Source: Patescibacteria group bacterium
GTDB lineage: Bacteria > Patescibacteriota > Minisyncoccia > 2-02-FULL-40-12 > IGHO2-01-FULL-4-A
DNA length: 48,586 bases
Reading direction: 5' to 3'
Assembly: GCA_038061865.1 (NCBI GenBank)
Contig: JBBTYI010000011.1
Coordinates: 1-48,586 of the forward strand
Below are positions 8,779 to 46,680 of this stretch, piece by piece. The position numbers and the translations under genes are program-made. The notes under the pieces are model-generated. The model searched no databases, was not told the origin of the DNA, and saw only the letters and a list, made by a program, of their open reading frames with translations. Positions within the stretch are counted from its first letter, which is position 1, and every line of letters starts with the position of its first letter.

Positions 8779-8848
8779 GTTTACACAATCGCCAATCTTT
8801 AATTTCTAATTTAGAAATTAGTAATTAGTAATTGGTCGTTGTATAAAC
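8779..8848. repeat. Heptamer-arm hairpin element inside rnpB
   Basis: GTTTACACAA...7-bp periodic arms...TTGTATAAAC. Confidence 0.8.
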
Positions 8849-9120
8849 AGCCCGGCCTTGCACCAGACAGGGTTTAGCACGTCTCGCCGTCACCGGCGGA
8901 CGATGGCGTTCGCCAACTTTTCACCCGTGCCCAGCTCCAGTTTTCGCAAACTGGAGCTGGGTCGGAATTGTCTCTGTGCCACTTTCCCTAAGCTTTGATC
9001 AATCGCTCTTGTCTTAAGAACAAGAACTATCAATCTTATACCCGGTGGCCGTTAGCCACTGTCTGCTTACCAGCTCCAGTTTTCGCAAACTGGGGTTGGT
9101 GGTGTTCGGACTTTCCTCCA

Positions 9121-9207
9121 GCTGACGCAACAACCAACTGCTAACTACTAATCTCTAATTTAGATTCTACTAAAGATTGGGGATTAGAAGTTGGCGATTG
9201 CGTAAGC
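9121..9207. repeat. Heptamer-arm hairpin element inside rnpB (P3 region)
   Basis: GCTGACGCAA...7-bp periodic arms...TTGCGTAAGC. Confidence 0.8.
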
Positions 9208-9238
9208 CAGCAATCACCCGCTTTGCCAAACTGCTTGC

Positions 9239-9247
9239 ATTATAGCA
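9239..9247 (-). promoter_or_regulatory. Extended -10 promoter for rnpB
   Basis: TGCTATAAT overlaps the rnhA stop codon, about 10 nt upstream of P1. Confidence 0.65.
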
Positions 9248-9674
9248 ATTTATTTAGCTCCTTGTCCAGAGTGGCGTTAACTAGCCGGTCAGCGCCGCGG
9301 TTTTTGCCTCGCAAGACGTGTTTGAATTTGATATGGGGGAAATCCAGCTTCAAGTTCCACAATTCCACAAACAGTTTTTGCAGCTCCGGTTCCACAATTT
9401 TGTAATGGCCGCTGATCTGCCGCTCCAACAGTTCGCTGTCCACCCGCACCTCCACTTGGGCATCCTTCAGTTTTTCCCCGCCCACCAGTTGTTTCAGTTT
9501 TTTCAACCCGAAGATGGCTGCCTTGTACTCGGCCTCGTTATTGGTGGCCCGCCCGAGATACTGACTGTACTCTTTCTTCAAAACGCCGCCTTCTTCCACA
9601 ATCACTGCCCCGATGGCGGCCTCCCCCGGATTACCCCGCGAACCTCCGTCGCTGTACACGATATACTTGCTCAT
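9240..9674 (-). CDS. rnhA: Ribonuclease HI family protein
   Basis: YSDGGSRGNPG, TNNEAEY, DSEL and N..ADRL. Confidence 0.92.
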   Translation of the reverse strand: MSKYIVYSDGGSRGNPGEAAIGAVIVEEGGVLKKEYSQYLGRATNNEAEYKAAIFGLKKLKQLVGGEKLKDAQVEVRVDSELLERQISGHYKIVEPELQKLFVELWNLKLDFPHIKFKHVLRGKNRGADRLVNATLDKELNKLL

Positions 9675-9677
9675 AGT

Positions 9678-10811
9678 TTATTGATAGTATCCCAAACTCT
9701 CCAATCCTGGCAATTTTTCCCCAGCCAGAAATACCAGCATCGCCCCGCCGCCGGTGGAGACGAAATCATACTGTGGCAGGAGGCCGAGGCGGTCGGCGGC
9801 GGCGATGGTATCGCCGCCGCCAATAATGGAATACTTGGCCGCGGCGACGGCGCGGGCGGTCTGCTCGGTGCCGGCGGCAAAAGCCGGTACTTCTGCCAGT
9901 CCCATCGGTCCGTTCCAGATGACCAGCTCCGCGCCGACAATGGTTTCAGCAAAATCCTGGGCAGTTTGAGTACCGATGTCAACAATTAGTTGATTATCGG
10001 CAGTATCTCCCAAGGGTTTAACTTCATTTTTGCCTTGCCCAGACTTATTCTCCGCCACCAATATATCCGTTGGCAACATAACGCCTTGCGATGACGTTAG
10101 TTGGGTTGGGGTGGAATCATCCACCACCGATTTACCCACCTTAATCCCCTGCGCTTTGAAAAAGTTATTGGCAATCGCCCCGCCGATAAGGATTTTTTCG
10201 GCTTTGTCCAAGAAATTCTTAATGACCGGCAACTTAGTGGAGATCTTCGCTCCGCCCAGCACCAGTACCTTGCCGGCCGCCGGCGCCGCCAGTGCTTTAG
10301 TCAGATGCTCAATTTCTTTCTTAATCAAAAATCCAGCATAGGACGGTAAATGTTTGGTAACGGCCACTACTGAGCTGTGGGCGCGATGGCAAACAGAAAA
10401 AGCGTCATTGATGTAGAAATCAAAACCCTTGGCCAATTCGGCGGCGAGGGCGTCATCGTTTTTTTCCTCGCGCGGGTCTTGACGGATATTGTCTATCAAC
10501 ACCACCGGGCATTTTTGTAAGATCAGTCCCAGCGAGCCCAGTTCGCTGTGCGGGATGAGGGTTAAGCTTTGACCCAATGCTTCCCCGATTTGTTCTGCAA
10601 TCGGACTAAAGCTGGTTCTCTCCGCGCGGTGGCTGACCAATGCCACCTGCGCCCCGGAGTTCACCAGATAATCCAGCGTGTGCTTGTGCGCTTTGATACG
10701 GAAGGTTTCTATCTCCCCGTCCTTGTCCGCTGCCGGCACGTTAAAATCCACCCGTAACAGCATCTTCTTCCCAGCTAATGCTTCTGGTTTTAATTCATTA
10801 AGATATTTCAT
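9678..10811 (-). CDS. pgk: Phosphoglycerate kinase
   Basis: RVDFNVP, NDAFSVCHRAHSS, LGGAK, WNGPMG, GGGDT and STGGGA. Confidence 0.95.
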   Translation of the reverse strand: MKYLNELKPEALAGKKMLLRVDFNVPAADKDGEIETFRIKAHKHTLDYLVNSGAQVALVSHRAERTSFSPIAEQIGEALGQSLTLIPHSELGSLGLILQKCPVVLIDNIRQDPREEKNDDALAAELAKGFDFYINDAFSVCHRAHSSVVAVTKHLPSYAGFLIKKEIEHLTKALAAPAAGKVLVLGGAKISTKLPVIKNFLDKAEKILIGGAIANNFFKAQGIKVGKSVVDDSTPTQLTSSQGVMLPTDILVAENKSGQGKNEVKPLGDTADNQLIVDIGTQTAQDFAETIVGAELVIWNGPMGLAEVPAFAAGTEQTARAVAAAKYSIIGGGDTIAAADRLGLLPQYDFVSTGGGAMLVFLAGEKLPGLESLGYYQ

Positions 10812-11494
10812 AGCGCGGAAACTACTTTCAAAACCTCTTCAAACTGCACTGCGTCTAAGCTGGCTTGGCCGACTATGGCGCCGGAGATTTCAGAATGTTT
10901 GAGGAAATCGCCTACATTGGCAGAGTTAACACTTCCTCCGTACAAAATAGTTTTCTTACCGGTGAGCCGCGCAATAATCTCGACAGCGGCTAGCGTATTT
11001 TCCGGCTTGTCCGGCTCGGCGCCGGGACTAGCGCTGATGGCCCAGACCGGTTCGTAGCAAATCAATATATTCACGACTTGCGATGTTATGAGATTAGCCA
11101 GGTTTTTATTCAGCTGTTCTCCCAGTACGGCCTGTCGGTTATCGCCTTTTGTTTTCTCACCAATTAGCAAAATCGGGGTAACACCAGAATTGAGGGCGAT
11201 TTTTAGTTTTCGGTTAATGATCTCATCCGTATCCCCTCCGCCTGTTGGCGGATAGCGCCGGTCGGAATGACCAACCAAAACATATTGCACGCCAAAATTG
11301 TCTCCTCCAGCAGTCCAAAAAATATCTTGAGTTCCGTTAGCTCCTAATTCTTTTACAAACTCGGCGGGCGGACAGATCACGGTTTTGATATTTGGATATT
11401 TCGCCGCCGCTTCCGTTTCCGTTTCAAACAACGCTTGCGCTTCAGCCAGTGTGTCGGGATGTGCTTTCCAGTTTGCGATAATAATTTTGTTCAT
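10808..11494 (-). CDS. tpiA: Triosephosphate isomerase (shortened)
   Basis: ANWK, GHSDRR, YEPVWAI and LYGGSV. Confidence 0.92.
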   Translation of the reverse strand: MNKIIIANWKAHPDTLAEAQALFETETEAAAKYPNIKTVICPPAEFVKELGANGTQDIFWTAGGDNFGVQYVLVGHSDRRYPPTGGGDTDEIINRKLKIALNSGVTPILLIGEKTKGDNRQAVLGEQLNKNLANLITSQVVNILICYEPVWAISASPGAEPDKPENTLAAVEIIARLTGKKTILYGGSVNSANVGDFLKHSEISGAIVGQASLDAVQFEEVLKVVSAL

Positions 11495-11498
11495 TGCA

Positions 11499-11540
11499 AG
11501 GTGTTTAATCCTGTTTCATATGCAGCAGGATTAAACACTT
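11499..11540. repeat. 42-bp near-perfect palindrome between dedA and tpiA
   Basis: AGGTGTTTAATCCTGTTTCAT|ATGCAGCAGGATTAAACACTT. Confidence 0.8.
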
Positions 11541-11555
11541 AGTGTAATTTTGATT

Positions 11556-12188
11556 CTACTCATGCGTCAAATGTCGGCGTTTAATATGCCGGTAAATATA
11601 CCAAGTAATCGCTAGCCCCAACGCACCAGCCATGAACAACTCTATTTTATCAAACCACGGCTGGATTCGCTCCCAGTTCTGCTCCGATTCCAGACCGGCG
11701 AAAATCAGCAGTATATTAAAAGGTATAGAACCGACGGCAGTATAGCCGACAAATCGCCAGAACGGCATCCGCGCTACGCCCGCTGGAATCGCCACGAAAG
11801 CGCGAATAATTGGCAGTAGCCGTCCGATGATAACCAGCTTGCCGCCATGTTTGGCGAATAGTCGGTCGGTATGGTCAAGGTCGTGTTTGAATACCAAGAT
11901 ATAGCGGCCGTACTTTCCCAAAAGCAGGCGCCCGCCCGAAGCGGATAGCCAGTACAACGTCACGTCCCCAATCAAATTACCCAAAGTTACTATGGCAATC
12001 ACCGGCCAAAGTGCCAGTCGTTCCTGCCCTACCAAAGCCCCGGCAAAAGGCAAAATCAGTTCCGCCGGCACCAGCGACAGCAAAAATCGATCCAAAAAAG
12101 ACAACAAAAAAACGCCGGTATAGCCGCCGTTAGCCATCAGCTCCAGTGATCGGGAAGCAATATTCTGAATTACTTGAGATAAAATCAT
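11556..12188 (-). CDS. DedA family membrane protein
   Basis: PAELILPFAG, F.KHG and GRLLPIIRAFVAIPAG. Confidence 0.92.
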   Translation of the reverse strand: MILSQVIQNIASRSLELMANGGYTGVFLLSFLDRFLLSLVPAELILPFAGALVGQERLALWPVIAIVTLGNLIGDVTLYWLSASGGRLLLGKYGRYILVFKHDLDHTDRLFAKHGGKLVIIGRLLPIIRAFVAIPAGVARMPFWRFVGYTAVGSIPFNILLIFAGLESEQNWERIQPWFDKIELFMAGALGLAITWYIYRHIKRRHLTHE

Positions 12189-12286
12189 GTGACGTGGCTG
12201 CTAGGCATTCCTTTAATTTATTACTCAAATCCCCAGGTGCGAAAGCTCGGCAGCAGCAATTTCGGAAATTAATTGGCTTACTTGTT

Positions 12287-13315
12287 CTATGCTTTTCTTA
12301 ATTCCTCCGCCGCTTGGTCCGGATCAACACTGTTAACGTCAATGCCGCTGCCCAGTTCAAAGGCGCCGATCATCCCCAGTTTGGGCAAGATTTCAATGTG
12401 CCAGGAATAAAATTCGTGCGGGTTAACATCCAGCTCGCCGGTGGGCGCAGTATGGATGAAAAAATTATAGTCTGGATCCCGCAAAACGGTATTGATTTTT
12501 TTCAGGGCGACCAGCATGGTTTCGGCCAGATAATTTCTTAAATCATCCGGCAGCTGTTCAAAATGGGCATGACTTTCCTTGGAAAATATTCTCACCTCAT
12601 AAGGCGATTTGGAAACAAAAGGGCAAAAAGCGATGAAATGATCATTTTCAAATACGACTCTTCTGCCTTCTTTCACTTCCCAATCAATCATTAGGTCGTA
12701 GACCCGTTTGCCCTGTTCGCGATAAAACCGCTCGGCCCCCGTAATACTGTGTTCAACGTCCGGCGGCAGAAGCGGTAAAGACATAATCTGGGTGTGGGGA
12801 TGAGTCAAGCTGGCGCCGGCTCTGGCCCCATGGTTGTGGAATATCAAAATATATTTGACAAAATCTTCTTTGGAAATAGCGCCGAATCTTTGCTGATAAA
12901 TCTTAAAGACTTCCGACATTTCCGCAACCGAGAACTGGTGCAATTGTTTGTCGTGGTCGCGGAAAATAACCAACTCGTGCTGGCCGCGGGCGGCGTGGGT
13001 ACTGAACGGCCCAGCTGTTTTAGCGCCATAGCTCGCATTGGCCGCGTTAACGATGGGGAATTTGTTCTGGGCCACTTTGGCAAACCAGTTTACCCCGTTG
13101 CGGAGCTTCTCGGGGCCGTCAGCGCCGCCCAGCGCCGGGAAAGTTTCCAGCACTTTGTTGCCGTGCCCCTCCGGATTCTCAAATGGGCATTTATCTTTAG
13201 GCACGATTTTTGAAACAACTTCCCGGTCAGGAGCGGGACGCAAAGCCCGCCCGGTGGCAAACAGCACCCAGTCGCCGGAAACCAAATCTTGGCGGAATTC
13301 ATTTAGATTAGTCAT
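12287..13315 (-). CDS. galT: Galactose-1-phosphate uridylyltransferase family protein
   Basis: R.DLVSGDWV, CPF, and the GASLTHPHTQ (HxHxQ) motif. Confidence 0.88.
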   Translation of the reverse strand: MTNLNEFRQDLVSGDWVLFATGRALRPAPDREVVSKIVPKDKCPFENPEGHGNKVLETFPALGGADGPEKLRNGVNWFAKVAQNKFPIVNAANASYGAKTAGPFSTHAARGQHELVIFRDHDKQLHQFSVAEMSEVFKIYQQRFGAISKEDFVKYILIFHNHGARAGASLTHPHTQIMSLPLLPPDVEHSITGAERFYREQGKRVYDLMIDWEVKEGRRVVFENDHFIAFCPFVSKSPYEVRIFSKESHAHFEQLPDDLRNYLAETMLVALKKINTVLRDPDYNFFIHTAPTGELDVNPHEFYSWHIEILPKLGMIGAFELGSGIDVNSVDPDQAAEELRKA

Positions 13316-14027
13316 ATTTTCCAATTAATAAATTGTATCTTACTTTTAACGTCTGCAGCAGTACTTGCGGATAAGCCCAGACATTTACTTTGGAATCCGG
13401 GTCGTTACTCCAGGTTACCGGCAGTTCTTTTATTTTATAGCCGAACATCTGGGCGATGGCCAGCGCCTCCACATCAAAGCCCCAGCCGAAAATGGTCAGG
13501 CGCGGGAAAATTTTTTGCGCCGCTTCGGCAGTAAATATTTTGAACCCCCGCTGGGTGTCGCTGATGCCCCAAACGGCAAAAATCTGAATCCACTTATTGC
13601 CCAGCTTGCCCATAATCACCCGCCACAACGGCTCGCCACCACCCTGTAATATTTTAGCGCCTTTGACGGCCAGTGAACCAATCACGACTTGATAACTTTG
13701 TTCAAAATAAGGCAAAAATTTTTCAAGATGGTCAATGGAAGTGGAATTATCGGCATCAGTAAAAAGCCGATAATCCCCTTGCGCTACCAGCATGCCGGTA
13801 GTCACAGCGTAGCCCTTGCCCGGTCGCGGTTCATCAATCACCCGCAAGCCCGGATACTGACTCTGGAAACTTTTGGCAATTTCCGCCGTCCGGTCCTGGG
13901 AATGATTATTGACGACAATAATTTCATAATCATAGCCCTGCTTGGCTAGATACTGTCCAATCGCTAAAATTGTTCCGCCAATGCGTTTTTCCTCGTTGTA
14001 GGCGGGGATAATTACCGACAAATGCAT
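13308..14027 (-). CDS. GT2 dolichyl-phosphate glucosyl/mannosyltransferase-like protein
   Basis: LSVIIPAYNEE, GKG, FTDAD, DTQRGFK and GWGFDVE. Confidence 0.9.
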   Translation of the reverse strand: MHLSVIIPAYNEEKRIGGTILAIGQYLAKQGYDYEIIVVNNHSQDRTAEIAKSFQSQYPGLRVIDEPRPGKGYAVTTGMLVAQGDYRLFTDADNSTSIDHLEKFLPYFEQSYQVVIGSLAVKGAKILQGGGEPLWRVIMGKLGNKWIQIFAVWGISDTQRGFKIFTAEAAQKIFPRLTIFGWGFDVEALAIAQMFGYKIKELPVTWSNDPDSKVNVWAYPQVLLQTLKVRYNLLIGKYD

Positions 14028-14041
14028 AGCCAAATTGTATC

Positions 14042-14812
14042 CTAAAGTTTAGTTAAAACCAACGGGGCGTCAGCGGTCACGGCTACCGTGTGTTCAAAGT
14101 GTGCGGCCGGGGAGCCGTCCTTCGTCCGCCAAGCGAGCGTGGTTTTGTCTTCAATCAATTCCGGCTGGCCGGTCACCAGCATCGGCTCAATTGCCAGCAC
14201 CATGCCTTCGACTAATGACTCCCCTTCACCCGGCCGGCCGAAATTCGGAATCTGCGGGGCCTCGTGGAGTTGTTTGCCCACGCCATGACCGACTAATTGA
14301 TAGACCACCTTAAAGCCGCCGGAGCGGGCACGACTCTCAATCGCGGAGCCGATGTCGCCGATGGTCTTACCCGGCCGCGCCCGTTTAATGGCTTCCGCCA
14401 AGCATTCACGCGTGACGGCTAGCAACTTATTTTTCAATTGCCAATTACTAGCGACATCGTAAGTCACTAATGGAGTTAGCATGGTGGTCGCCGCGTCGGT
14501 GATGAAACCCTGGTATTTGACGCCAAAATCAATACTGACCAAATCTCCCGGCTGGATAATTCTTTCCGAAGGCAAACCGTGCACTACTTCCTCGTTGATG
14601 GAGACGCACAGCGCCGCCGGATAGCCATCATAGCCTAAAAAAGTCGGCTGGGCGCCGGGATAGTCGTTTAATAATTGGCGAGTGAGATTTTCCAGTTCTT
14701 GTGTCCGGATTCCGGCTTTTACTGATTGTTCTAGCGTTCTTAGAATTTCAGCTAGTATCTTCCCGCCCGCCTGCATTATTTGAATTTCCTCTGATGATTT
14801 AATTGAAATCAT
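14042..14812 (-). CDS. map: Methionine aminopeptidase type I
   Basis: SINEEVVHGLP, GHGVG..LHE.P, AIEPM and AHFEHT. Confidence 0.96.
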   Translation of the reverse strand: MISIKSSEEIQIMQAGGKILAEILRTLEQSVKAGIRTQELENLTRQLLNDYPGAQPTFLGYDGYPAALCVSINEEVVHGLPSERIIQPGDLVSIDFGVKYQGFITDAATTMLTPLVTYDVASNWQLKNKLLAVTRECLAEAIKRARPGKTIGDIGSAIESRARSGGFKVVYQLVGHGVGKQLHEAPQIPNFGRPGEGESLVEGMVLAIEPMLVTGQPELIEDKTTLAWRTKDGSPAAHFEHTVAVTADAPLVLTKL

Positions 14813-14827
14813 TAAATAAGAGCTTCA

Positions 14828-15508
14828 TTAATTAACGGCCAAGGCTTGCTTTATATCCGCGAACACTTTTTCAATCGGCTGTTCGCCGTTAATTTCAATT
14901 ACCCGATAGCCGTTATCGCGGAAATATTGCAACACTGGCGCGGTGTCGCGCAAGTACACCTGATAACGCTCTTTGATAATCTCCGGTTTATCCAGCGGGC
15001 GGGTGACAATTGGTGAACCATCTTCGGGGCAGACGGAGATATTAGCAAACTCGGGAAAATTGGGAATGGGGTGGCGGTTGGCTTGGCACAAGCGGCGGGC
15101 GCTGTTTCTTTTGATTGATTCTGCTTCGCTTAGCTTAATTTCAACGGCAGCAATTTCATCTTTACCGTAAATCCCGGCTAAAAATTCCAGGTTTTTTTCG
15201 GTTTCCTCCAGTGTTCGGGCCGAGCCGCTGAAAACAAAACCCTTGACCCGGTCTTTCAGTTTGCCGACTTCTTCTCTGAACCACCTAATGATAACCGCCG
15301 GGGTCATCAGCCCACCCCCGAGCCATAACTTTTTCTGCTCGGCTATTTCCGGATCGTTGGGTTCGGCATTTTTGAATTTTTCCTCAATCACCTTGGATAT
15401 TTCAAAATGGTAAAAGCCGAGCTCCTTGGCTAGCAGCTCGGCCTGCGTCCCCTTGCCCGACCCCGGCGGCCCGATCAGAATGATCGCCATTTTCCGTACT
15501 TCTGTCAT
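14828..15508 (-). CDS. adk: Adenylate kinase / NMP kinase (start may be at 15490)
   Basis: GPPGSGKGTQA P-loop, a LID-like region, and position upstream of map. Confidence 0.88.
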   Translation of the reverse strand: MTEVRKMAIILIGPPGSGKGTQAELLAKELGFYHFEISKVIEEKFKNAEPNDPEIAEQKKLWLGGGLMTPAVIIRWFREEVGKLKDRVKGFVFSGSARTLEETEKNLEFLAGIYGKDEIAAVEIKLSEAESIKRNSARRLCQANRHPIPNFPEFANISVCPEDGSPIVTRPLDKPEIIKERYQVYLRDTAPVLQYFRDNGYRVIEINGEQPIEKVFADIKQALAVN

Positions 15509-15861
15509 AGGCTGTGCTGTAAATTAGCGGCATAAGCGAAAGCGTCAAAATATTTCCGCCAGGAATATTCGGTGGATTTGTATTCATTATCACCATAGAA
15601 AAAATCGGCCAGCACTTCGCGCACGCGCCATAATTCCTTCCCCCGTCCACCGCGCTGGTTTTTCGGGTCGGCAATAGTTAAATCCAACAGTGCCAAGGCG
15701 CGGTCAGCCGCCAGCCGGTCAGCCACCGGCTGACCGGCTGGCGGCTGCTCAGCTCGTGCTTTCAGCGCCCGTGAGACCTCGCCGCCAATATTTCCCAACT
15801 GGGCAAAAAGCGAAAGTTTCCGCCAGCGGTCAGCCGTTACCATTTTAAGTCGATAATCCAT
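15505..15861 (-). CDS. Conserved hypothetical helical protein, partner of the DUF5674 gene
   Basis: QLGNIGGEVSRA...ALLDLTI.DP...KEL.RVRE; directly abuts both neighbours. Confidence 0.75.
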   Translation of the reverse strand: MDYRLKMVTADRWRKLSLFAQLGNIGGEVSRALKARAEQPPAGQPVADRLAADRALALLDLTIADPKNQRGGRGKELWRVREVLADFFYGDNEYKSTEYSWRKYFDAFAYAANLQHSL

Positions 15862-16203: not shown

Positions 16204-16221
16204 AGTCAAAGCATAGCATCC

Positions 16222-29256: not shown

Positions 29257-29762
29257 ATTTAAACAAAGTATTTCTAATCGGCCGGTTAGTCGCCGACCCC
29301 GAAGCTCGGACCACTCCCAGCGGCCAGCTGGTGGCGACTTTGCGCATCGCCACCAATCGCGTCTGGAACAATCGCCAGACCAATGAAAAACAGGAACAGG
29401 TGGAGTTTCATACCGTCATTGCCTGGAGCCGACTGGCCGAGATCGCCCAGAAATATTTATTGAAAGGGCAAATGGTGTTTATTGAAGGCCGTCTGCAAAC
29501 CCGTTCCTGGCAGGGCGCCGACGGCGTCAAACGCTACCGTACCGAAATTGTCGCCGAAAATCTTCAGTTAGGCCCGAAAGCGCTGGGTACTGCCAGAACC
29601 GCTCCCGCCGCTATGCCCCAGGGTCAAACTCAAGAAAATATGAAAACTCCGGCTGATGACGATATTCCGGTAATTGACCAGGAAGCGCCGGTGGCCAATC
29701 CGATAATCTCCGATGATGAAGTAGAGGAGACGGAGATAGATCTGAAGGAAATACCCTTCTGA
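29253..29762 (+). CDS. ssb: Single-stranded DNA-binding protein
   Basis: MNLNKVFLIGRL, EGRLQTRSW and C-terminal IPF. Confidence 0.98.
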   Translation: MNLNKVFLIGRLVADPEARTTPSGQLVATLRIATNRVWNNRQTNEKQEQVEFHTVIAWSRLAEIAQKYLLKGQMVFIEGRLQTRSWQGADGVKRYRTEIVAENLQLGPKALGTARTAPAAMPQGQTQENMKTPADDDIPVIDQEAPVANPIISDDEVEETEIDLKEIPF

Positions 29763-29797
29763 CGAAATCACCAATCAATAATTTCCAATCACCAATC

Positions 29798-29883
29798 GTT
29801 TACACAATCACCAATCACTAATCACCAATCATTAATCGCCAATTATTGAAGATTGTAGATTGTCGATTGTTGATTGCATCAGC
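29798..29883. repeat. Heptamer-arm hairpin element between ssb and rpsR, with an extra left arm from 29758
   Basis: GTTTACACAA (TCACCAA)n ... TTGCATCAGC, immediately followed by the rpsR ATG. Confidence 0.8.
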
Positions 29884-30096
29884 ATGCCCTGCATCGCCTG
29901 CCAGCAAAAAATTAATCACGTTGACTACAAGCAGACCGACGTCTTGCGGAAGTTTGTTTCCGGCCAATTTAAGATCTCTTCTTCCAGCCGCACCGGCTTG
30001 TGCAAAAAGCATCAGCGCATGGTTGCCAACGCCGTTAAACTTGCTCGCTTTATGGCCTTGATGCCATATACTAAGGCCCAGACCCGCAAAAAATAG
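29884..30096 (+). CDS. rpsR: 30S ribosomal protein S18 (zinc-ligand type)
   Basis: CIAC, VDYK, RTGLCKKHQR and AR.MALMPY; start taken at MPC. Confidence 0.93.
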   Translation: MPCIACQQKINHVDYKQTDVLRKFVSGQFKISSSSRTGLCKKHQRMVANAVKLARFMALMPYTKAQTRKK

Positions 30097-30146
30097 CCGT
30101 TTAAAAGCAGGCAATTGCAATTGTTCATCCGTCCCAACAAGCCGAG

Positions 30147-31193
30147 CTAGGCTGTAGTCGTTTCCGCTACCGCCGCCGCTTTTTTGATCAGGCCCAAGAT
30201 TTCTTTTTCAATCTGGGGATTCTCTTTGAGATACTGACGGGAGCTCTCCACTCCCTGCCCCAGCTTTTGCTCGCCGAAGTTATACCAGCTGCCGGATTTG
30301 CTGACCACATTCAAAGCCACGCCGGTGTTGATCAGGTCGGCCAGCCGGGAAATGCCTTCGTTGTATAAAATATCAAACTCGGCGGTGCGGAAGGGCGGGG
30401 CTACTTTGTTTTTGACCACTTTTACTTTTGTGCGGTTACCGATAATCTTTTCGCCGGCTTGGATCTGCGCCGCCCGCCGGATTTCCAAACGCACGGAAGA
30501 ATAGAATTTGAGCGCCAGTCCGCCGGTCGTGGTTTCGGGGTTACCAAACATCACGCCGATTTTGTGGCGGATTTGATTGACGAACATTACGGTGGTATTG
30601 GTCTTGGCGACGATGGCGGTCAGTTTGCGCAAAGCGTGCGACATCAGCCGGGCTTGCAGTCCCATATGTTGTTGATCCATCTCGCCTTCAATTTCGGCGC
30701 GCGGCGTCAGCGCCGCCACCGAATCCACCACTATCAAATCCACTCCGCCCGAACGCACCAGCGTCTCCACAATTTCCAGCCCTTGCTCGCCGGTATCGGG
30801 TTGGGAAATCAGCAAATCGCCGATTTTTACCCCAATTCGCTTGGCATATTCCGGATCTAGCGCGTGCTCGGCATCCACATAGGCGGCGATGCCGCCCATT
30901 TTTTGAACTTCCGCCACGCAATGGAGACAGACGGTAGTTTTTCCGCTCGACTCGGGACCATAGATTTCAACAACCCGGCCGCGCGGGATGCCGCCGACGC
31001 CGAGCGCCAAATCCAGTGAGATAGAACCGGTTGGAATCACGTCCACGTCAACCTTTTTGGTGTCGCCTAATTTCATAATTGACCCGTCGCCGTATTTTTC
31101 CTGGATTTCTTTAATCGCCAATTCTACCCCGCGCATCCTCCCGTCGGTTTTGGCAGACTTTGTTTCTTCCTTTTTGGTTTTTTCTTTAATCAT
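30147..31193 (-). CDS. recA: Recombinase A
   Basis: [17 protein letters not shown] and [13 protein letters not shown]. Confidence 0.99.
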
Positions 31194-31194
31194 C

Positions 31195-33465
31195 TTATAT
31201 TTGTTCGTTGGTCGGTTCTTCCTTAGTTAATATCATTTCATCGGTTGAGGTAATTTCCGCCACAGCGCCATCGTCCGGTTCTTGACCGGAGCCAATCTCC
31301 GCTGGGCCGGGACGGCCAATGAATACTTCCCTGGGTTTGGCCCCTTCCCCGGGACCGATGATCCCTCTTTCCTCAAGCAGATCCAAAAGCCGCGCCGCCC
31401 TGGCATAACCTACCCGCAAGCGTCTTTGCAAAAGCGAAGCCGAGGCCTTGCCGGCTTGCGCCACTACGATTTTGGCTTCTTCATACAGTTCATCGCCGAC
31501 GTCGTTAATCTCGGCCAGGGTCGCGGAAACCGCTTGATCAAGGTCCAGCTTAAGATCGTTTTTGACTTCTTCCTCTTCTTCCGCGGTCGCTTCTTCCATT
31601 TCTTCAGCCTGCTGTTTGATGAATTTGGCTACGTCTTTGACTTCTTTTTCGGAAACAAAAGCGCTTTGAATGCGGCGCGGCTTGGAAGTGTCGCCGGCCT
31701 GGTAGAGCATATCGCCATTGCCCAAAAGTTTTTCGGCGCCGGCCATGTCTAAAATCGTTCTCGAATCGACTTGGGAAGCGACCTGGAAAGCGATCCTAGT
31801 GGTAATATTAGCTTTGATCAGTCCGGTAATCACGTCGGTTGACGGTCTTTGCGTGGAGACGATCAGATGGATGCCGACTGCCCGGGCCATTTGCGCCAAA
31901 CGAACAATCGCCGCCTCCACGTCCCGCCCGTGGGCGGCCATTAGGTCAGCCAGCTCGTCAATCACGATCACGATGTAGGGCATGATTTCTTTTTTGCCGG
32001 CAGCTTGTTTGATATTAAAGGAAGCAACGTCGCGCGAGCCGATTGCCGACAGCCGTTCGTAGCGTTTTTCCATTTCTCTGACCGCCCAGCGCAAAGCGTT
32101 GACCACTTTCTTTGCATCAACGATCACCGGTGTAATCAAATGGGGAATGCCGTTGTATAAAGTCAGTTCCACCCGTTTGGGGTCAACCAAAATCAGTTTG
32201 AGCGTGTCCGGCGAGTGCTTATACAAAAGAGAAAGCAAAACCGTGTTGATACTCACTGACTTGCCGGTGCCGGTGGCGCCGGCGACCAGCAAGTGAGGCA
32301 TTTTTTCAAGCGCGGTAAAAACCGGGAAACCGGCCACATCCCGGCCCAAGACCACCGGCAGATAGCTGGTCGTATTTTTGAACTCTTCGGCTTCAAATAA
32401 ATCGCGCAAGCCGACCAGCGCTGATTTTTTGTTGGGCACTTCAATGCCAACCAAAGCCTTGCCCGGAATCGGCGCTTCGATCCTGATCGGGTGGGCAGCC
32501 AAAGCCAAAGCCAAATCGGAATTGAGGACGGTGATTTTGGAAAGCTTGACGCCCATCGCCGGCCGCAAGGTGAACTGGGTCACAGTCGGGCCGATCGAGA
32601 CCTCGCCCATTTCCACGTCAATGCCGAAGTTGGACAGCGTCCGTTTGATAATCGTCACGTTGGCATTGATGTCGCCGGCGCGTGGTGTTTCTTTATCGGT
32701 ATGCAAAATTTCCAGCGGCGGCAAAACCCATTTACCCGATTTAGAATGTTTAATCACGAATTCGCGTTCCTCGTCGTCCCCGTGCCGATGTTGCGCCGCG
32801 CGTTGAGCCGAGTCTCTGGCCCCTGACGGGACGCGAACATCGGCAGCAATCTCGGCAGCGGGACGGTTAATAATTTCCCCGCCGCGCTTAATTACCACTT
32901 TGTCTTCCAGATTTTCTTCTTCCTCCTCCGCTCCTTCGCCGGCTTCGGGCTTAGCCAGTAAGCCATAAACCGGAATATCCAAAACCACCAAAACTGAAAC
33001 CAGCAATAAGATAATTAGAATAATAAAAGAGGTGATGAAACCGACTGACTTAAAGAGCGGGAAACCGATGATTAAGCCCAGGTAGCCGCCCTGACTGACG
33101 CGCAAAGCCAGGTCGCCATCGCCGATGATATGGAAAACTCCCAAAAAACTTAAAACAAAAAGCATCGTACCGACGATGGCGCTGACATAAACGCGCCGGG
33201 AAACGGACTTAAAAAAAGCCGCGCCCAGCAGAGCAAAGGCAATCGGCACCAAAAATATCCCCCAGCCGAAAAGCTGTCGCGCCAGGGCGGCGAACAGTCG
33301 CCCGCCTCCGCCGGCTTGATTAAAAAAAGCCAGGGTTGAGATCAAGGCTAAGCCGATGCTGATAACGCCAAAAACGCTGTTTTTAGTTTCCTGCGATAAA
33401 CCCAGAACTGCTCGCTGCTCTTCCGTCTCCTTCAGCTCTCTTGCTTTTCTTTTCTTTTTAGACAT
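31195..33465 (-). CDS. ftsK: DNA translocase FtsK/SpoIIIE
   Basis: Four N-terminal TMs, [16 protein letters not shown], and gamma domain [14 protein letters not shown]. Confidence 0.97.
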
Positions 33466-36964: not shown

Positions 36965-36966
36965 TT

Positions 36967-40554: not shown

Positions 40555-40595
40555 CCGCTCGCCTCATCCCCAAGCTTCGTGTTATTATACATTCA

Positions 40596-42320
40596 GTGCT
40601 TAAAGACCGCGAAGTAAAATTAATTGGTTTAGTCGGTCTATTGCTTGGGCTGGTGCTCCTGGGTAATTATCTGGTTTTTTCCTTTCCCTACATTAAGGCC
40701 ATAATCACCGGCGATTGGCTTGAACCGCCGATTGGTTTTTTGGAAAATGTTGACGGGGTTTCCGGGGTGGCCGGCGGCTGGGCGCTTGACCCGGATACTC
40801 CCGCTCAAGCGATTGACGTGCATTTTTATCTGGACGGTCCGGCCGGCCAGGGCGGAATTTTCATCGGTTTCGTTAAAGCCGGTCTACCCAGGCCGGACGT
40901 TAACCGAGTCACCGGACATGCCGGCAACCACGGTTTTCGGTTCACCGTCCCCGACCAATACCGGGACGGCCGGGAACATACCATTTATGCTTATGGCATT
41001 GACGTAGGCGTCAGTTATAATCCCCCGCTCGGCAATTCGCCGCTGATTGCCGAATTGCTCTTGCCGGCCGGCAGTTTGGACAGTAATCCAGAACCGGCCC
41101 GCCGGCCGGGTTTTGTTCTAGTCGGCCAGCCGGAAAAAGTATTTGCCTACTCGCAAGACCGCTGCGAGACGCTTGATATCCCCGATGCTCCGGCCCGAAC
41201 TTTCCGTAACGCTGACGGGTTGATTAACCTGATTGATTCTCACTACGTCAGCTACCGCAGCACCGGCAGTTCGTTTGCCAACTTGCGGCGCGATTGCGCC
41301 AAGATAATGGATTCGGCCAAAAATCCCGACTTTAATCAATTCACTTATTATGAATGGCTGACTGCGCCTTATACGCTTGACGGCGCCACTGTTTACAATT
41401 TAGTTCACAACGAATGGTACGCTTATCTAATTGACCCGCGCTGCAGCCGCGCCAGCCCGGGCGATGGCTGGGTTAATGCGATTACTTTGGTTCAATCCAA
41501 AGACGGCGGCGCCAATTACACCCGCCCGACGGATTACCTCGTTTGGAAACCGTCAACACCCTGGGATAACAGCTTCTCTTGTACGGCCAATAACTATACC
41601 CGCTACGGCGCTTTCAATCCTTCCAACATCGTCAAAAAAGATAACTATTACTACGCCCTCTACCAATCGGAACGCGACCCGACCGGCCGTTACGATTGGG
41701 GTACTTGTTTGATGCGTACTGCGCGCTTGGATTCAGCCTCGGCCTGGATGGTTTGGACTGCTGGGGGCTGGGACAATGCGCCTGATGCCGCTTGCCAACT
41801 GATCGCCCGCGACAAGATTGAAAAGATGCATGAGTCGCTCACCTATAATACGTATTTTGACGCCTATTTGCTGGTCGGCACCAAATATTCGCCGGAAGAA
41901 GGCGTTTATTTCTCTTTATCAAAAGACCTGTTTAACTGGTCGGAGCCGATAAAACTTTACGGCCGTCAGGCGGTTTATCCTTCGGTCATTGACCATACCG
42001 ACACCAGCCGCAATTTTGAAAACTCCGGCCGGGAAGTTTATCTTTACTTCACCCAAAATAACGGCGGCCTTAATCGCGATTTGCTGCGCCAAAAAATCCG
42101 CTTCACCGGCGGCGTGCCGGCAGTCAGCCAAACGCCCAGTCTCACGCCTGAACCGACTTTTTCTGCTTCGCCCACGCCCATTTTGCCACCTACTGCCACT
42201 CCGACCCCAGTCCCGACTCCAACACTAACCGCCTCGCCGACTCCCACACCTTCTCTGCGCCTCTGCCGCTGGTATAATTTTTTTGGCTTCAAAGATCTTT
42301 TCTGCCGCCGGTTACCCTAA
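40596..42320 (+). CDS. Membrane-anchored or secreted protein: Ig-like domain, probable beta-propeller, PT-rich tail
   Basis: N-terminal hydrophobic helix, GWALDPD...RPDV...HGF domain, Asp-box-like SKDGGANY and SKDLFNW, and TPTP repeats. Confidence 0.7.
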   Translation: MLKDREVKLIGLVGLLLGLVLLGNYLVFSFPYIKAIITGDWLEPPIGFLENVDGVSGVAGGWALDPDTPAQAIDVHFYLDGPAGQGGIFIGFVKAGLPRPDVNRVTGHAGNHGFRFTVPDQYRDGREHTIYAYGIDVGVSYNPPLGNSPLIAELLLPAGSLDSNPEPARRPGFVLVGQPEKVFAYSQDRCETLDIPDAPARTFRNADGLINLIDSHYVSYRSTGSSFANLRRDCAKIMDSAKNPDFNQFTYYEWLTAPYTLDGATVYNLVHNEWYAYLIDPRCSRASPGDGWVNAITLVQSKDGGANYTRPTDYLVWKPSTPWDNSFSCTANNYTRYGAFNPSNIVKKDNYYYALYQSERDPTGRYDWGTCLMRTARLDSASAWMVWTAGGWDNAPDAACQLIARDKIEKMHESLTYNTYFDAYLLVGTKYSPEEGVYFSLSKDLFNWSEPIKLYGRQAVYPSVIDHTDTSRNFENSGREVYLYFTQNNGGLNRDLLRQKIRFTGGVPAVSQTPSLTPEPTFSASPTPILPPTATPTPVPTPTLTASPTPTPSLRLCRWYNFFGFKDLFCRRLP

Positions 42321-42322
42321 TT

Positions 42323-43402
42323 TTAACTCCGGATCTTGATGCTCTCTACCACGCCCAAGCCGACCATCAGAGTAAGCAGATGGCTGCCTCCGTAACTTAA
42401 AAAAGAGAAGGGGATGCCGGTGATCGGCAAAACGCCCAGATTCATGCCGGCATTGGAAAAGGAGTGGATAATAATGACGGTCATCAACCCCAGAATATAC
42501 AGTCGGGCAAAGTTGTTGCTCACCCGCGCGGCAACGGCGCCCAGCCGCCAGCTTAATCCGGCCAGCAGGCCCAGGAGCAAAACCACACCAGCAAAACCAA
42601 ACTTTTGCCCATAAGCGGCAAAAGCAAAATCGGTGTATCTTTCCGGCACCAAAACGGTCAGATTTTTGCTGTTATCAAAAAAGGTGCCCCAAATCCTTCC
42701 CGAACCGAAAGTGGTTTGGGACTGAATGACGTTGTAACCGATGCCTCGCGGGTCAAGATAAGGATTGAGGAATGAGAAAATCCGGTCTTTTTGATACGGT
42801 TTGAAAGCTAAAAACCAAGCGAAGGAAAATATCATCAAGCCGACCATCAGTATCGTCAAGAGATGCCGCCTTTTAATGCCCGAGAAAAACAGCATTGCCA
42901 GCCATAAAGCAACGAAAACCATCGTTGAACCGAAATCAGGCTGGAGCAAAGTCAACCACGCCGGCGCCGCGGCGTAAACCCCCGAAGCTAAAATATGGTG
43001 CCAGCGGTAAATTTCCGCGTGTTTCTGGGAAAAATATTTAGCTAATAAAACTAGCAGGGTCAGTTTGGTGAACTCCGACGGCTGAAAACCATAGCCACCG
43101 AGGATTATCCACGAGCGCGCGCCGCGCACCGGGCTGAAGCCGAGCGCAGCCAGCAAAAAAATTATTGAAATCGCATAGAGAATTACCGAGGCCGCGGAGT
43201 AGTTTTTGAAAATTCGGTAATCAGCAAAAGAAACGCTAATCATCAACACCGCTCCGGCTAAACTGAAGAGCAGCTGCTTCCGGAAAATCTCCTCCTCCCG
43301 CGCCCCGCTTTGATAAAAAGTCAGCGCCCCCAAAACTACAATCGCCAGCGCCAGCGCCAATAAAACCCAATCAAATTTCTTCAGCCATACGCTCCACGTC
43401 AT
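42323..43402 (-). CDS. rodA: SEDS family peptidoglycan polymerase (RodA/FtsW)
   Basis: FQPSEF.K, QPDFG, PE.YTDF and GIPFSFLSYGGS. Confidence 0.88.
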   Translation of the reverse strand: MTWSVWLKKFDWVLLALALAIVVLGALTFYQSGAREEEIFRKQLLFSLAGAVLMISVSFADYRIFKNYSAASVILYAISIIFLLAALGFSPVRGARSWIILGGYGFQPSEFTKLTLLVLLAKYFSQKHAEIYRWHHILASGVYAAAPAWLTLLQPDFGSTMVFVALWLAMLFFSGIKRRHLLTILMVGLMIFSFAWFLAFKPYQKDRIFSFLNPYLDPRGIGYNVIQSQTTFGSGRIWGTFFDNSKNLTVLVPERYTDFAFAAYGQKFGFAGVVLLLGLLAGLSWRLGAVAARVSNNFARLYILGLMTVIIIHSFSNAGMNLGVLPITGIPFSFLSYGGSHLLTLMVGLGVVESIKIRS

Positions 43403-43564
43403 AGGTGGAGTTTAGCGTATGGTTTTAGCTTGAGCAAATCTAGCTCGCCCCGCTGCCTTTGTGAGGACTTCCTCGCCCCCAGCGTGGGCTCGCTTTGATT
43501 TTGCCCAGAGAAAAAGTCCCACACGGTGAAGCACGGTTGTGTGTGCTTTTTCTGTGTGAGAATA

Positions 43565-44344
43565 TTAGTAGAATTGCTGAAATCTTTCCGGTTGCTGGTA
43601 CTGCCGCAAAAAATTGGAGTTCTCAAAGACATTGGTGCTGGCTTCCACTTCCACCCGGGCCACCCGGCCGATAAAGGGCGAAAACCACGAGACCTCAAAA
43701 CCGCGCGTGGTCTTGGCGAGGAAAGTCCTAATTTCCGTGCGGTTGACGGCCAACAGATTATCACCGGAGTCAAAAAGCAAAACTAGCGCATCTACCCGTC
43801 CGAGATCAAAGTCGGAATTGTTGAGAATTAATCCCTCGGCTCGGCCGAACAAATTGTTCTGTCTAGTTTCTTGATAATTAACATTGCGAGCGATCAGCGG
43901 CACGCCGCTGACGCCGATTGGGTCAAGTTTCTGCCAGTCCACGCTTTTGACGATCAACTCTACCCGACTGATTGGTTCAGAAAACTTCAGCGGCGTATCA
44001 ATAATGTATTTGGTCTGGCCGGGGAGGATATAAAAATTGCCGATCTTACTGGAAATGATTGTGTTGGCGGCACCGTAAAACTTAAGCTCATACTCCGCCT
44101 CGGCCGAGCCGTAGTCGGTGTTGGGATTAACCACCTTGGCGACAAAGTCGTAGTCATTGTTTTGAACGTTGAGCAGTTTTGTTAAGGCGATGCTGATTGG
44201 CGCCAGATTGGCCGTCGGGTTAGGCGTCGGCGGCGGAGGCGGCGGATTGACGGTGCGGAACAGCCAAAAACCCAGTCCGCCCAAAATCAAAAAAAATATC
44301 AGAGCGATAAGGATTTGTTTAGTGAGGCGCTGGGCGTCAGTCAT
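43565..44344 (-). CDS. Membrane-anchored hypothetical protein with two beta-sandwich-like domains
   Basis: N-terminal TM, proline linker, and V.NPN...YILPGQTKY; start taken at MTDAQR. Confidence 0.75.
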   Translation of the reverse strand: MTDAQRLTKQILIALIFFLILGGLGFWLFRTVNPPPPPPTPNPTANLAPISIALTKLLNVQNNDYDFVAKVVNPNTDYGSAEAEYELKFYGAANTIISSKIGNFYILPGQTKYIIDTPLKFSEPISRVELIVKSVDWQKLDPIGVSGVPLIARNVNYQETRQNNLFGRAEGLILNNSDFDLGRVDALVLLFDSGDNLLAVNRTEIRTFLAKTTRGFEVSWFSPFIGRVARVEVEASTNVFENSNFLRQYQQPERFQQFY

Positions 44345-44456
44345 TGGATTAATTATAATTGGCAGCGAGGACGATTGGAAGTTCACTTACAGTTCGTCCG
44401 AGCGAACCAATTATACAAAGTATATCGGTTTTCCGGCCAAAACAAAAACCCAATAG

Positions 44457-44573
44457 TCCGGCGGCTACCTACTTTCGCGCCCTGCCAAGCAGAGTACTAT
44501 CATAGGCCTTGGCGTCTTTCACTTCTGAGTTCGGAATGGGATCAGGTGGTACAACGCCAGTATAGTCGCCGCG
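44457..44573 (-). rRNA. rrf: 5S rRNA
   Basis: CACCTGATCCCATTCCGAACTCAGAAGTGAA and AGTAGGT; flanked by a perfect 17-bp inverted repeat (44440-44456/44574-44590). Confidence 0.95.
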
Positions 44574-44879
44574 CTATTGGGTTTTTGTTTCAGGTTTTCC
44601 GATCACTCTGTGTTTCCGGGGTTTTCAGGACTTAATCTTGTAAGGAATCTTTGATCTATTAGTAGCGCTCGGCTGAACGCGTTACCGCGCTTACACCTGC
44701 GCCCTATCAACCTGGTAATCTCCCAGGGATCTATGGACTTGCGTCCGTGAAGTCTAATCTTGGGGCCCGTTTCGCGCTTATATGCTTTCAGCGCTTATCG
44801 GCACCGAACATAGCTACCCAACGCTGCTCTGGGCAGAACAATTGGTAGACCAGAGGTTCGTTCATCCCGGTCCTCTCGT

Positions 44880-45389
44880 CATGCTTACGCAATCACCAAT
44901 TAACAATTACTAATCGTTAATTGGAGTCACACCCTTCATCACTGAAGGCATAGACTATATCTTGCTCACGCAACAACCAACTACTAATCACCAATCGCTA
45001 ATAAATTACATTAACGATTAGAAGTTAGAAGTTGGCAATTGCGAGAGCTCGGCATATTATGATTAGCCGTTGACTCCGCCAGTTGGCGGAATCGCATCAC
45101 TAACTATCCACCGAGCACATATGTTTTGTGTGCTACGGTAAGTCGTTACGGGGTTTGTTATAAGTTTTTAGCAAATATTCTTTACACTTATTATAACACA
45201 AACTCAAACAAACTTCCCACGGGATTAACCTAATTCTGTTTATTCCACCATCATCGGACCGATAGACCGTGGCAAAACTAGGCCTCCCCCGTTATTAGCC
45301 GAATTTGCCATCCAAACATAGCTCAAGGCAATCTTGAGTATGCCCGAATGGGTTTCAATACAGGTCACCCTGTAAAGTAGCAAAACTTT
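44880..45389 (-). mobile_element. Group I intron, ORF-less, 510 nt, after U2656 (E. coli numbering), in the sarcin-ricin loop
   Basis: CCUAGU|AAAG...GCAUG|ACGAGAGG; exon ends in U, intron ends in G; core motifs CCCGUAACGACU and AAGAUAUAGUC. Confidence 0.9.
44964..45048. repeat. Heptamer-arm hairpin element forming P8 of the U2656 intron
   Basis: GCTCACGCAA...TTGCGAGAGC. Confidence 0.8.
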
Positions 45390-45460
45390 ACTAGGGACAA
45401 CCCCCCTCAAACTTCAACGCCCGCACCAGATAAGGACCAACCTGTCTCACGACGGTTTGA

Positions 45461-46285
45461 CAATATTTCTTATATTAGACTATACCTTTTCTGATTTTCC
45501 GAATCAGAACTGACGTGTTGCGACGACTAAATAATCGCCGCCTGTCCTTCAACAAGTTCAGGACAAGTCGTTACGGGGACTAGAAATCTTATAGTTCATT
45601 GATGCGATGATATATGGTCTCACTATGTTAATTAATTTTTCGCACTCATAGTGCCTAATTGCCATCTTGTACTTATTCCTATCCTTGACCAAGGTGGAGC
45701 TAACTCCAAATTTGTCCAGAAGTAGTTTCTGTAGAATTTTCTGTTCAACAACAGAAAAGTTATGCGTATTCAGGGTAATATTGTTGCCATTATTAGAATC
45801 ATCGTCCATATACCAGACTGCCAAACCTAATGGTTCAAGCGAGCCTAATAATACGCCCGGCAATATTTTAGTTCTGCTTTTATAAAACAGTTTCTGAAAT
45901 AGCCCGAGTGTTTCGTTACTACGTGTGTGGAAATACCAGGAGAAATGGGTTTTATTTCTTTTTTTATCGTGCCAAACTTGAGTAAACCTAGGTCCTTTTG
46001 AAACCAGATTTTTCAATTTGGTATATTTCCAAAACACATAGTCTTTTTGCTTATCGGATTGATGGATCCGTAAACGAGCAGTATGTTTTGCCCTAATACT
46101 TTTTGAACGACACTCTAAACGAGCATCACCCAACAATGAACCAAGGATCAATTGAAATTGATCATACGGAATTAATGATTTCAGTCTTCCCACGATGTTT
46201 TCCACAACTTAATTATAACATAATCAAGTCAATTGGAATTCACCGTTATGAGTCAGTTTTTACTGGGCTCATGTAGTTTTCACTA
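45461..46285 (-). mobile_element. Group I intron, 825 nt, after U2584, carrying a LAGLIDADG gene
   Basis: GCUGGGU|UAGUG...AUAUUG|UCAAACCG; P1 GCUGGGU/GCCCAGU with a U.G pair; CCCGUAACGACU and GGUAUAGUC. Confidence 0.92.
45558..46205 (-). CDS. Two-motif LAGLIDADG homing endonuclease (I-SceI-like)
   Basis: ILGSLLGDA and LAVWYMDDD motifs; the 3' end overlaps the intron core. Confidence 0.9.
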   Translation of the reverse strand: MENIVGRLKSLIPYDQFQLILGSLLGDARLECRSKSIRAKHTARLRIHQSDKQKDYVFWKYTKLKNLVSKGPRFTQVWHDKKRNKTHFSWYFHTRSNETLGLFQKLFYKSRTKILPGVLLGSLEPLGLAVWYMDDDSNNGNNITLNTHNFSVVEQKILQKLLLDKFGVSSTLVKDRNKYKMAIRHYECEKLINIVRPYIIASMNYKISSPRNDLS

Positions 46286-46294
46286 ACCCAGCTC

Positions 46295-46680
46295 CATGTT
46301 TATTCTCTTATTACTAAGAGCATAGACTATATCTCTACCCTGCTAACACAACTACCAACTACCAATCACTAACTATTAATCCGAATTGATTATAAGTTGG
46401 GAATTAGAGATTGGAGATTGTGTAAACAGGGTACTAGCGTTTTATAGTAAGCCGTTGACGTTATCTCACTACCTACTATCTAGTCCTTCGTTTCTTTGGA
46501 CTAAGTCGTTACGGGGAAATTTATTAAACTATAAATTTCTTCCCTCGATATTGCCCGGGAAATTGGGTTAAATTTCCTGGGTTCTACCGATATAAGCTAG
46601 AGTGACACGTCAATTAATTTTACCCCAGATTGACGTGCTTGGCTCGCGCCAGATGTTACTATCTGGCCACGTGAATTTTC
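46295..46680 (-). mobile_element. Group I intron, ORF-less, 386 nt, after C2575
   Basis: GGUACGC|GAAAAUUCACGUG...ACAUG|GAGCUGGGU; CCCGUAACGACU and GAGAUAUAGUC core motifs. Confidence 0.88.
46342..46427. repeat. Heptamer-arm hairpin element in P8 of the C2575 intron
   Basis: GCTAACACAA...TTGTGTAAAC. Confidence 0.8.

Follow-up and report, generated by a model that had tools for sequence, protein, structure and literature searches.

A stretch of 48,586 nucleotides (nt) from a Patescibacteria group bacterium (assembly GCA_038061865.1, contig JBBTYI010000011.1), here called the window, carries a family of long hairpins whose inverted arms consist of 7-nt units and whose outer ends read GYTNACRCAA. 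They lie in the RNase P RNA gene (rnpB), in two group I introns of the 23S ribosomal RNA (rRNA) gene, between genes and, as single arms, inside coding sequence. These hairpins are probably copies, devoid of an open reading frame (ORF), of a palindromic element of the rRNA intervening sequence (IVS) type, the full form of which is a PF05635 four-helix-bundle gene between inverted heptamer arrays ending in GYTNACRCAA. At RNA sites the element replaces a short native hairpin exactly, without a duplicated target. The occupied places are the tips of peripheral helices (P3, the post-P5 hairpin and P16/17 of RNase P RNA, P8 of the introns, and rRNA helices) and stop/start spacers of zero length. Single arms overwrite a coding stretch of about equal length, in frame, and units are gained and lost later by slippage.

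The window is contig C11 of G000, a 529-kb, 21-contig genome of the Patescibacteria (candidate phyla radiation, CPR) that is 89.5% complete by marker genes. We compared it with related genomes, designated G004 to G075, and with loci designated by L numbers.

Definition of the hairpin family

The first-pass annotation, a reading of the letters of the window alone, had described complete copies at 8779–8848, 9121–9207, 29798–29883, 44964–45048 and 46342–46427 and half copies at 464–501, from 29758 and from 44883, and all of them were found there. Each complete copy folds as one long imperfect hairpin, with minimum free energies of −21.2 to −43.0 kcal/mol and z-scores of −3.7 to −10.1, and none of 200 dinucleotide shuffles per copy folded as well. 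GYTNACRCAA and its complement stand at the two termini, so that inverted terminal repeats are present, and period-7 arms flank both sides of each hairpin and pair with complementary arrays. A mismatch recurring in the heptamer phase was considered and rejected, as unpaired bases recur every ~8 nt rather than every 7.

The family extends through the genome. We counted 11 full hairpins in G000, of which the window holds five and contigs C5, C9 and C15 hold three, two and one, respectively. None encloses an ORF. We also found single arms, in frame, in five ORFs. Inside coding sequence only such single arms occur, and full hairpins are confined to RNA helix tips and intergenic spacers, which supports the earlier proposal of a non-autonomous element that persists at places able to accommodate a long hairpin. 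Runs of five or more N4-Y-AA units number 14 on the forward and 11 on the reverse strand, against 1 and 1 in five Markov simulations summed. The stricter unit YNNNYAA forms 29 runs of at least four units, and GYTNACRCAA is joined to 14 of these exactly and to six more with one mismatch. The shared ends that had been claimed from the window are thus found genome-wide, on 20/29 heptamer arms with at most one mismatch, compared with a background of 0.1% at random places. The 10-mer by itself is unremarkable (16 and 10 matches versus ~8 expected per strand, or ~1.5 times commoner than expected), and the family is defined by the end joined to heptamers. The trinucleotide CAT directly before the end was considered as a target motif and rejected, as it is found in a minority of arms only (4/14, 5/27 and 5/80).

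RNase P RNA sites

The RNase P RNA gene contains two complete copies:

8696..9229, minus strand: RNase P RNA gene (class A) with two elements inside (RF00010, 133 bits at 8697–9156; 5' end from the P1 pairing)
9121..9207, minus strand: full hairpin of 87 nt that makes up distal P3 (fold −34.4 kcal/mol, z −8.2)
8779..8848, minus strand: full hairpin of 70 nt in the P16/P17 arm (placed by the Rfam alignment; fold −23.6 kcal/mol, z −7.2)

The RNA reads from 9229 to 8696, and its P1 is formed by 9229–9220 paired with 8705–8696. Rfam starts the gene 73 nt downstream of this, at 9156, as its alignment assigns half of the P3 element to P1–P3. The copy at 9121–9207 lies directly 5' of the conserved P4 strand. 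Distal P3 of G019 and G024 is a stem-loop of 14–16 nt between the same four-base flanks as the filled P3, and the position is filled in G000 and G020 by an element of ~85 nt, the outer units of which are common to the two genomes and the inner units different. Groundwater metagenome contigs of co-occurring relatives have 14 nt where G000 has 9123–9205, and 35 nt, resembling the short P16/17 of G014, where G000 has 8779–8852. A third helix tip, the post-P5 hairpin, measures 12–17 nt in G012, G019 and G013 and is a complete element with both ends in G014, G011 and G005; in G000 an unrelated hairpin occupies it. Heptamer runs were present in four of the 30 rnpB loci scanned, G000 included, and G020, added later, is a fifth carrier; among the 31 rnpB genes thus examined, no form intermediate between native hairpin and element was found.

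Apart from this family, an unrelated hairpin of 26–30 nt occurs twice in the RNase P RNA of G000 (8931–8960 and 9070–9095, in P12 and the post-P5 hairpin) and has no other copies in the genome. The rnpB gene of G011 similarly has one hairpin sequence at two places.

Intron sites

Two group I introns of the 23S rRNA gene carry the following copies:

44880..45389, minus strand: group I intron 1 in 23S rRNA, boundaries inferred (520-nt insert in the large-subunit rRNA alignment; Intron_gpI 34.9 bits, E = 2.2e-6)
44964..45048, minus strand: full hairpin replacing P8 of intron 1 (Intron_gpI alignment; fold −43.0 kcal/mol, z −10.1)
44883..44920, minus strand: half copy, an exact end and five units, in the 3' tail of intron 1 (end 3 nt from the inferred 3' splice site)
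45446..46668, approximate, minus strand: group I intron 2 in 23S rRNA, with a LAGLIDADG ORF at 45558–46205 (1223-nt insert in the large-subunit rRNA alignment)
46342..46427, minus strand: full hairpin replacing distal P8 of intron 2 (fold −26.2 kcal/mol, z −5.5)

Intron 1, the Rfam score of which (34.9 bits) is under the gathering score of 50, sits in the sarcin-ricin loop of 23S rRNA. Its exon ends were set from the conserved loop sequence aligned with G027, and its 3' splice site was deduced from the 23S alignment. G027 has an orthologous intron at this position of its 23S gene, with a P8 of 18 nt between the same flanks. In the 3' tail, the inner part of the half copy forms a 13-bp hairpin (z −4.0); the tail of the G027 intron (L205) holds a different heptamer run.

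No Rfam intron model matches intron 2 at E up to 1. It shares core blocks with intron 1, among them the conserved blocks that flank P8, and the hairpin is found between these. The ORF at 45558–46205 matches PF03161 with 121.6 bits. A 6-bp native P8 base is retained outside the element, and the orthologous introns of G005, G075 and G036 have a P8 of 27 nt with the same 4-bp base as G000.

Sites between and inside genes

Upstream of rpsR, a complete copy stands beside a half copy:

29798..29883, plus strand: full hairpin in the ssb-rpsR spacer, its right end immediately before the rpsR ATG (fold −21.2 kcal/mol, z −3.7)
29758..29795, plus strand: half copy, a degenerate end (two mismatches) and four units, directly after and overlapping the ssb stop codon

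The ssb-rpsR spacer is 121 nt long in G000 and much shorter in G011 (2 nt), G014 (11 nt) and G020 (22 nt). In G005 (L261) it holds a different heptamer array with five tandem copies of one unit, and in G019 other palindromes. The other full intergenic copies of G000 lie before rpmA, between rpsD and rpoA, before rpsM, between tsaE and polA, beside pnp and beside a type II/IV secretion ATPase gene. Four of the seven intergenic copies are thus in ribosomal-protein operons (rpmA, rpsD-rpoA, rpsM and rpsR), and right ends abut the start codons of rpsR, rpmA and three other genes.

In coding sequence, the window has one single arm:

464..501, minus strand: half copy, an exact end and units, read in frame close to the 3' terminus of a DivIC/FtsB-like gene (PF04977, 36.6 bits)

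The ORF (397–789, minus strand) is read through the arm, and its translation includes ADAIANSQLPITNS. By itself the arm does not fold (z −1.1). Elsewhere in G000, an end and five units encode 15 residues of isoleucyl-tRNA synthetase (IleRS), right behind a conserved tryptophan-proline. Because the orthologues from G019, G005 and G020 carry 14 unrelated residues in place of these 15, the alignment indicates that the IleRS arm is a patch of nearly equal length rather than an insertion. G014, the closest relative, has a decayed version of the arm with 16 residues.

The first-pass annotation had suggested looking for empty sites in orthologues of rnpB and of the introns. In the relatives, six occupied sites are empty or differently filled: three helix tips in rnpB, P8 in each of the 23S introns, and the spacer between ssb and rpsR. 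Of the two histories it had opposed, presence and absence at orthologous loci is what is seen, and slippage of units is found on top of it, as in the differing inner parts of the P3 copies of G000 and G020.

Link to a PF05635 cassette in 16S rRNA

That the hairpins might be gene-less derivatives of a four-helix-bundle unit had been proposed tentatively. Support came from the tip of 16S rRNA helix 6, where a PF05635 gene lies between arms with these ends in G011, which belongs to the same family as G000, in G037, of the same order, and in two CPR records (L092 and L101). The question whether any copies enclose an ORF receives a negative answer in G000 and a positive one in its relatives. In the four cassettes the native helix base is followed immediately by the final seven letters of the end, with which the arms start, and helix 6 measures 32–69 nt in 16 of the 17 relatives where it could be measured. 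The arms of the G011 cassette match the rnpB P3 copy of G000 exactly over 22 nt and the intron 1 copy over 19 nt, with a control maximum of 8. Within a set of 34 PF05635 proteins, those of helix 6 group in one clade (100/100 support), which includes a fifth protein, from G034, the arms of which have a different end. PF05635 is not known to have an enzymatic role.

Within the order, 65 of 105 genomes encode PF05635 (59 above the Pfam cut-off). Among the 30 best loci, all 29 that were testable lie between inverted arms (control 0/29) by a criterion of at least 16/21 complementary bases (control maximum 14), and the period-7 score exceeds the control maximum in 27 of the 29.

No 16S rRNA gene is assembled in G000, where it is probably broken by insertions; the start of contig C21 resembles a 16S 3' end. 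In the relatives, arms of the same family were also noticed in 23S domain I (L198 of G004 and L203 of G011) and inside or beside large 16S insertions (L185 of G034 and L192 of G011).

Distribution

The pattern of the end followed by three units was sought in the 105 genomes of the order, with a reversed-pattern control that gave 0 everywhere. It was present in 11 of them: six of 25 in family f1, three of eight in f2, one of nine in f4 and none of 62 in f3. G000 is the richest with 14 arms. An even sample of 400 genomes from elsewhere in the phylum had none. Together with presence and absence at orthologous sites, this restriction to 11/105 genomes of the order versus 0/400 others supports the spread within the lineage that had been proposed.

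A global scan of 185,579 species genomes returned at least 112 stretches from many phyla, of which 80 loci were examined. Both ends were present at only five, all CPR-labelled, as were 27 of the 80 loci. We do not claim conservation of the end outside the order, as matches from other phyla are one-ended and many are plain tandem arrays with a unit equal to the last 7 nt of the end. At the 80 loci, 48 ORFs situated just inside the arms were tested; three encode PF05635, all three in 16S helix 6.

The hairpins had been described as concentrated in ribozyme stems. Strict arms lie within rnpB, 16S or 23S spans in 7/14 cases in G000 and 10/27 in its relatives, and the combined 17/41, set against a generous 20% share of such spans in non-coding DNA, gives P ~0.001, with the arms of one hairpin being non-independent. 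The concentration is thus significant only when the relatives are added.

Other features of the window and genome

By Rfam, the window holds, all on the minus strand, the RNase P RNA, the 3' part of the 23S rRNA with the inserts of 1223 and 520 nt, the 5S rRNA and two transfer RNAs. Its coding content includes DUF4012, the rpsF-ssb-rpsR operon and the LAGLIDADG genes inside the 23S rRNA. Together with the small genome and with close matches to records that bear the labels Patescibacteria, Yanofskybacteria or Saccharibacteria, these features identify the host as a CPR bacterium. A further LAGLIDADG ORF (46984–47631, minus strand, 172.9 bits) lies upstream of the aligned 23S part and suggests a third intron in the 23S gene, which runs off the window end. 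An IVS-like cassette in the 23S rRNA (~47940–48440, minus strand) has a PD-(D/E)XK ORF at 47988–48374 (PF13366, 126 bits), and the arms around it are inverted, with units of roughly 8-nt period and GC-rich outer ends.

Contigs of all four metagenome runs join position 6449 to 7343 and skip 893 nt, near the ends of which lie two palindromes (6581–6640 and 7163–7208) that are related to each other. With just 26 nt on its shorter side, the joint may come from a relative.

Contig C15 of G000 bears a diversity-generating retroelement (DGR) at 29900–31900 (L281, 3930–5870), with a variable/template repeat pair of 119 nt, the members of which are 87% alike, nearly all differences falling at template adenines. 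The pair adjoins a weak Avd-like four-helix-bundle ORF and a reverse-transcriptase gene.

Discussion

Short tandemly repeated repetitive (STRR) heptamers in the RNase P RNA genes of cyanobacteria, lengthening helix P12, were reportedly described by Vioque in 1997. They are like the present copies in being 7-base repeats in a peripheral RNase P RNA helix; in contrast, the helices occupied here are P3, the post-P5 hairpin and P16/17, the host is a CPR bacterium, the ends are conserved and there is a link to an rRNA cassette. Miniature inverted-repeat transposable elements (MITEs) and REPIN-type repeats (hairpins formed by paired repetitive extragenic palindromes) are short, palindromic, dispersed and non-coding. 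The present hairpins share these traits and have MITE-like terminal inverted repeats, but they differ in having no target duplication, no cognate transposase found in a search of the Y1 family only, and copies that are far from identical. The sole gene-bearing form found carries PF05635.

Another parallel is the IVS of rRNA. A 2024 survey of insertions in CPR rRNA records 23S_rRNA_IVP ORFs in both 16S and 23S insertions (PMC11270868). Its main text does not contain the words "repeat" and "hairpin", and its supplementary insertion tables may bear on hairpins. Such IVSs and the present hairpins share the replacement of a helix tip by a long stem, a sporadic distribution and, probably, a full form with a PF05635 gene; moreover, in relatives the same element is found in 16S helix 6, and relatives also have copies in 16S and 23S rRNA. 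Unlike rRNA IVSs, the copies in the window lack an ORF, and none belongs to mature rRNA; they occur in RNase P RNA and intron P8, before genes and in coding sequence. Heptanucleotide repeats also build the P6b stem of the Nostoc tRNA-Leu(UAA) group I intron, which varies in length and the types of which have been replaced independently across lineages (PMC4476775). It too is a peripheral group I intron stem of 7-nt repeats, and its Class I motif TDNGATT resembles reverse arm units of G000. The differences are the phylum, the stem (P8 here versus P6b), the units (YNNNYAA and its complement, as opposed to TDNGATT and NNTGAGT in cyanobacteria), the conserved outer 10-mer and the CPR host, and the accessible part of that paper describes neither a conserved outer end nor a gene-bearing form for Nostoc. 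Large helix extensions of CPR RNase P RNAs have been noted, with no cause given in the accessible text (PMC8172020). In our literature search, neither a connection between PF05635 and heptamer arms nor a description of hairpins of this kind in RNase P RNA or introns of CPR bacteria came to light.

We infer that the family consists of old copies of an IVS-type palindrome, made by replacement at hairpins and retained at places that a long duplex does not disturb. Several observations weigh against this reading. Neither a target-site duplication nor a flanking direct repeat was found at any site, among the five full copies or in the comparison of filled and empty sites. The element is presumably mobile, but no movement was seen and no pair exceeds 78% identity. 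Units are also clearly gained and lost in place, which speaks against an active mobile element. Identity among the 11 full copies is 51–78% with a median of 66%, compared with a shuffled median of 54%, which speaks against a recent burst. In G000 alone, 4/11 hairpins are in structured RNA, which is not significant against the non-coding share (P 0.07–0.16, from a crude estimate of 8%), so that the described concentration in ribozyme stems does not hold for this genome by itself. The near-equal-length replacement in IleRS (45 nt for 42) has no known mechanism. The end GYTNACRCAA is present at 0/30 of the best PF05635 loci of the order, the arms of which have other unit sequences; therefore, the cassette link holds for one cassette lineage only. 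Finally, PF05635 was not found in G000 at E up to 1e-5, the sole weak match (17 bits) adjoining the reverse-transcriptase gene of the DGR. This absence says little because the assembly is 89.5% complete and lacks 16S rRNA, and the cassette may simply be missing from it.

The hairpin could instead be a selected RNA module, an RNase III processing site or a binding site of the cassette protein or another factor that couples the maturation of rRNA, RNase P RNA and ribosomal-protein mRNAs. This account, which is compatible with a mobile origin, is conceivable but unlikely. It would fit the conservation of the ends while the arms drift, the complementarity of the arms kept in each copy, the presence of an RNase III gene in G000, the contact of right ends with start codons and the share of intergenic copies in ribosomal-protein operons. 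The operon bias, however, may be chance in a tiny genome rich in translation genes, and the contact with start codons is explained by the 2-nt spacers of relatives, since an insert into such an ssb-rpsR spacer must touch the rpsR start codon. The low frequency of CAT before the end (4/14, 5/27 and 5/80 arms) also argues against it, and the orthologous sites of close relatives are empty or hold unrelated hairpins, so that no host RNA needs the hairpin. Formation of each copy in place, by heptamer slippage and palindrome formation with convergent ends, seems quite unlikely to us. Tandem duplication of units within arms, the P3 copies of G000 and G020 that are alike outside and different inside, the other heptamer families at like sites (the G005 ssb-rpsR spacer and the G027 intron tail) and the age and divergence of the copies are what such an origin would produce. 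It would not be expected to place a 10-nt end on 20/29 arms at unrelated loci, where chance gives 0.1%, to yield exact matches of 19–22 nt to cassette arms in another genus, or to replace native hairpins whole with no intermediates among 31 rnpB genes. Movement in trans by a transposase, as a classical miniature inverted-repeat element, is very improbable: 10-bp inverted ends, small size, many copies and patchy spread are typical of it, but targets are not duplicated, sequence is replaced instead of inserted, no two copies exceed 78% identity, and G000 has no match to a Y1 (IS200/IS605-type) transposase, the sole transposase family searched.

If the hairpins are indeed ORF-less copies of an IVS-type element, their origin would lie in DNA, where one hairpin would replace another without a cut-and-paste transposase, palindromes serving as sites of template switching or of short-patch recombination. 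In RNA, the extension would either be tolerated or, like rRNA intervening sequences, be cut back by RNase III; the element would be selfish or neutral and dispensable for the host RNAs. A bolder and rather unlikely proposal is that such hairpin-for-hairpin replacement is a mode of spread of its own, in which a palindromic IVS-type element overwrites hairpin tips or like-sized coding stretches with neither a transposase nor target duplication, possibly through an RNA or cDNA copy, as the genome has a DGR reverse transcriptase, and possibly with proteins of the helix-6 clade reading the ends.

The novelty lies in the sites within ribozymes, in the ends that the copies have in common and in the coding-sequence patch of equal length. 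The finding joins three subjects that are usually kept separate: the rRNA IVS and its orphan four-helix-bundle gene, the heptamer repeats that extend ribozyme helices in cyanobacteria, and the oversized helices of CPR RNase P RNAs reported in PMC8172020. It also explains an annotation pitfall, the 5' end of rnpB misplaced by Rfam, and indicates that single arms can be written in frame into coding sequence. Exact filled and empty sites are now available for testing the spread of the element. If hairpin-for-hairpin replacement is truly its own mode of spread, with ends read by helix-6 proteins, a single system would comprise the unexplained heptamer repeats of ribozymes, the IVSs of rRNA and the PF05635 family.

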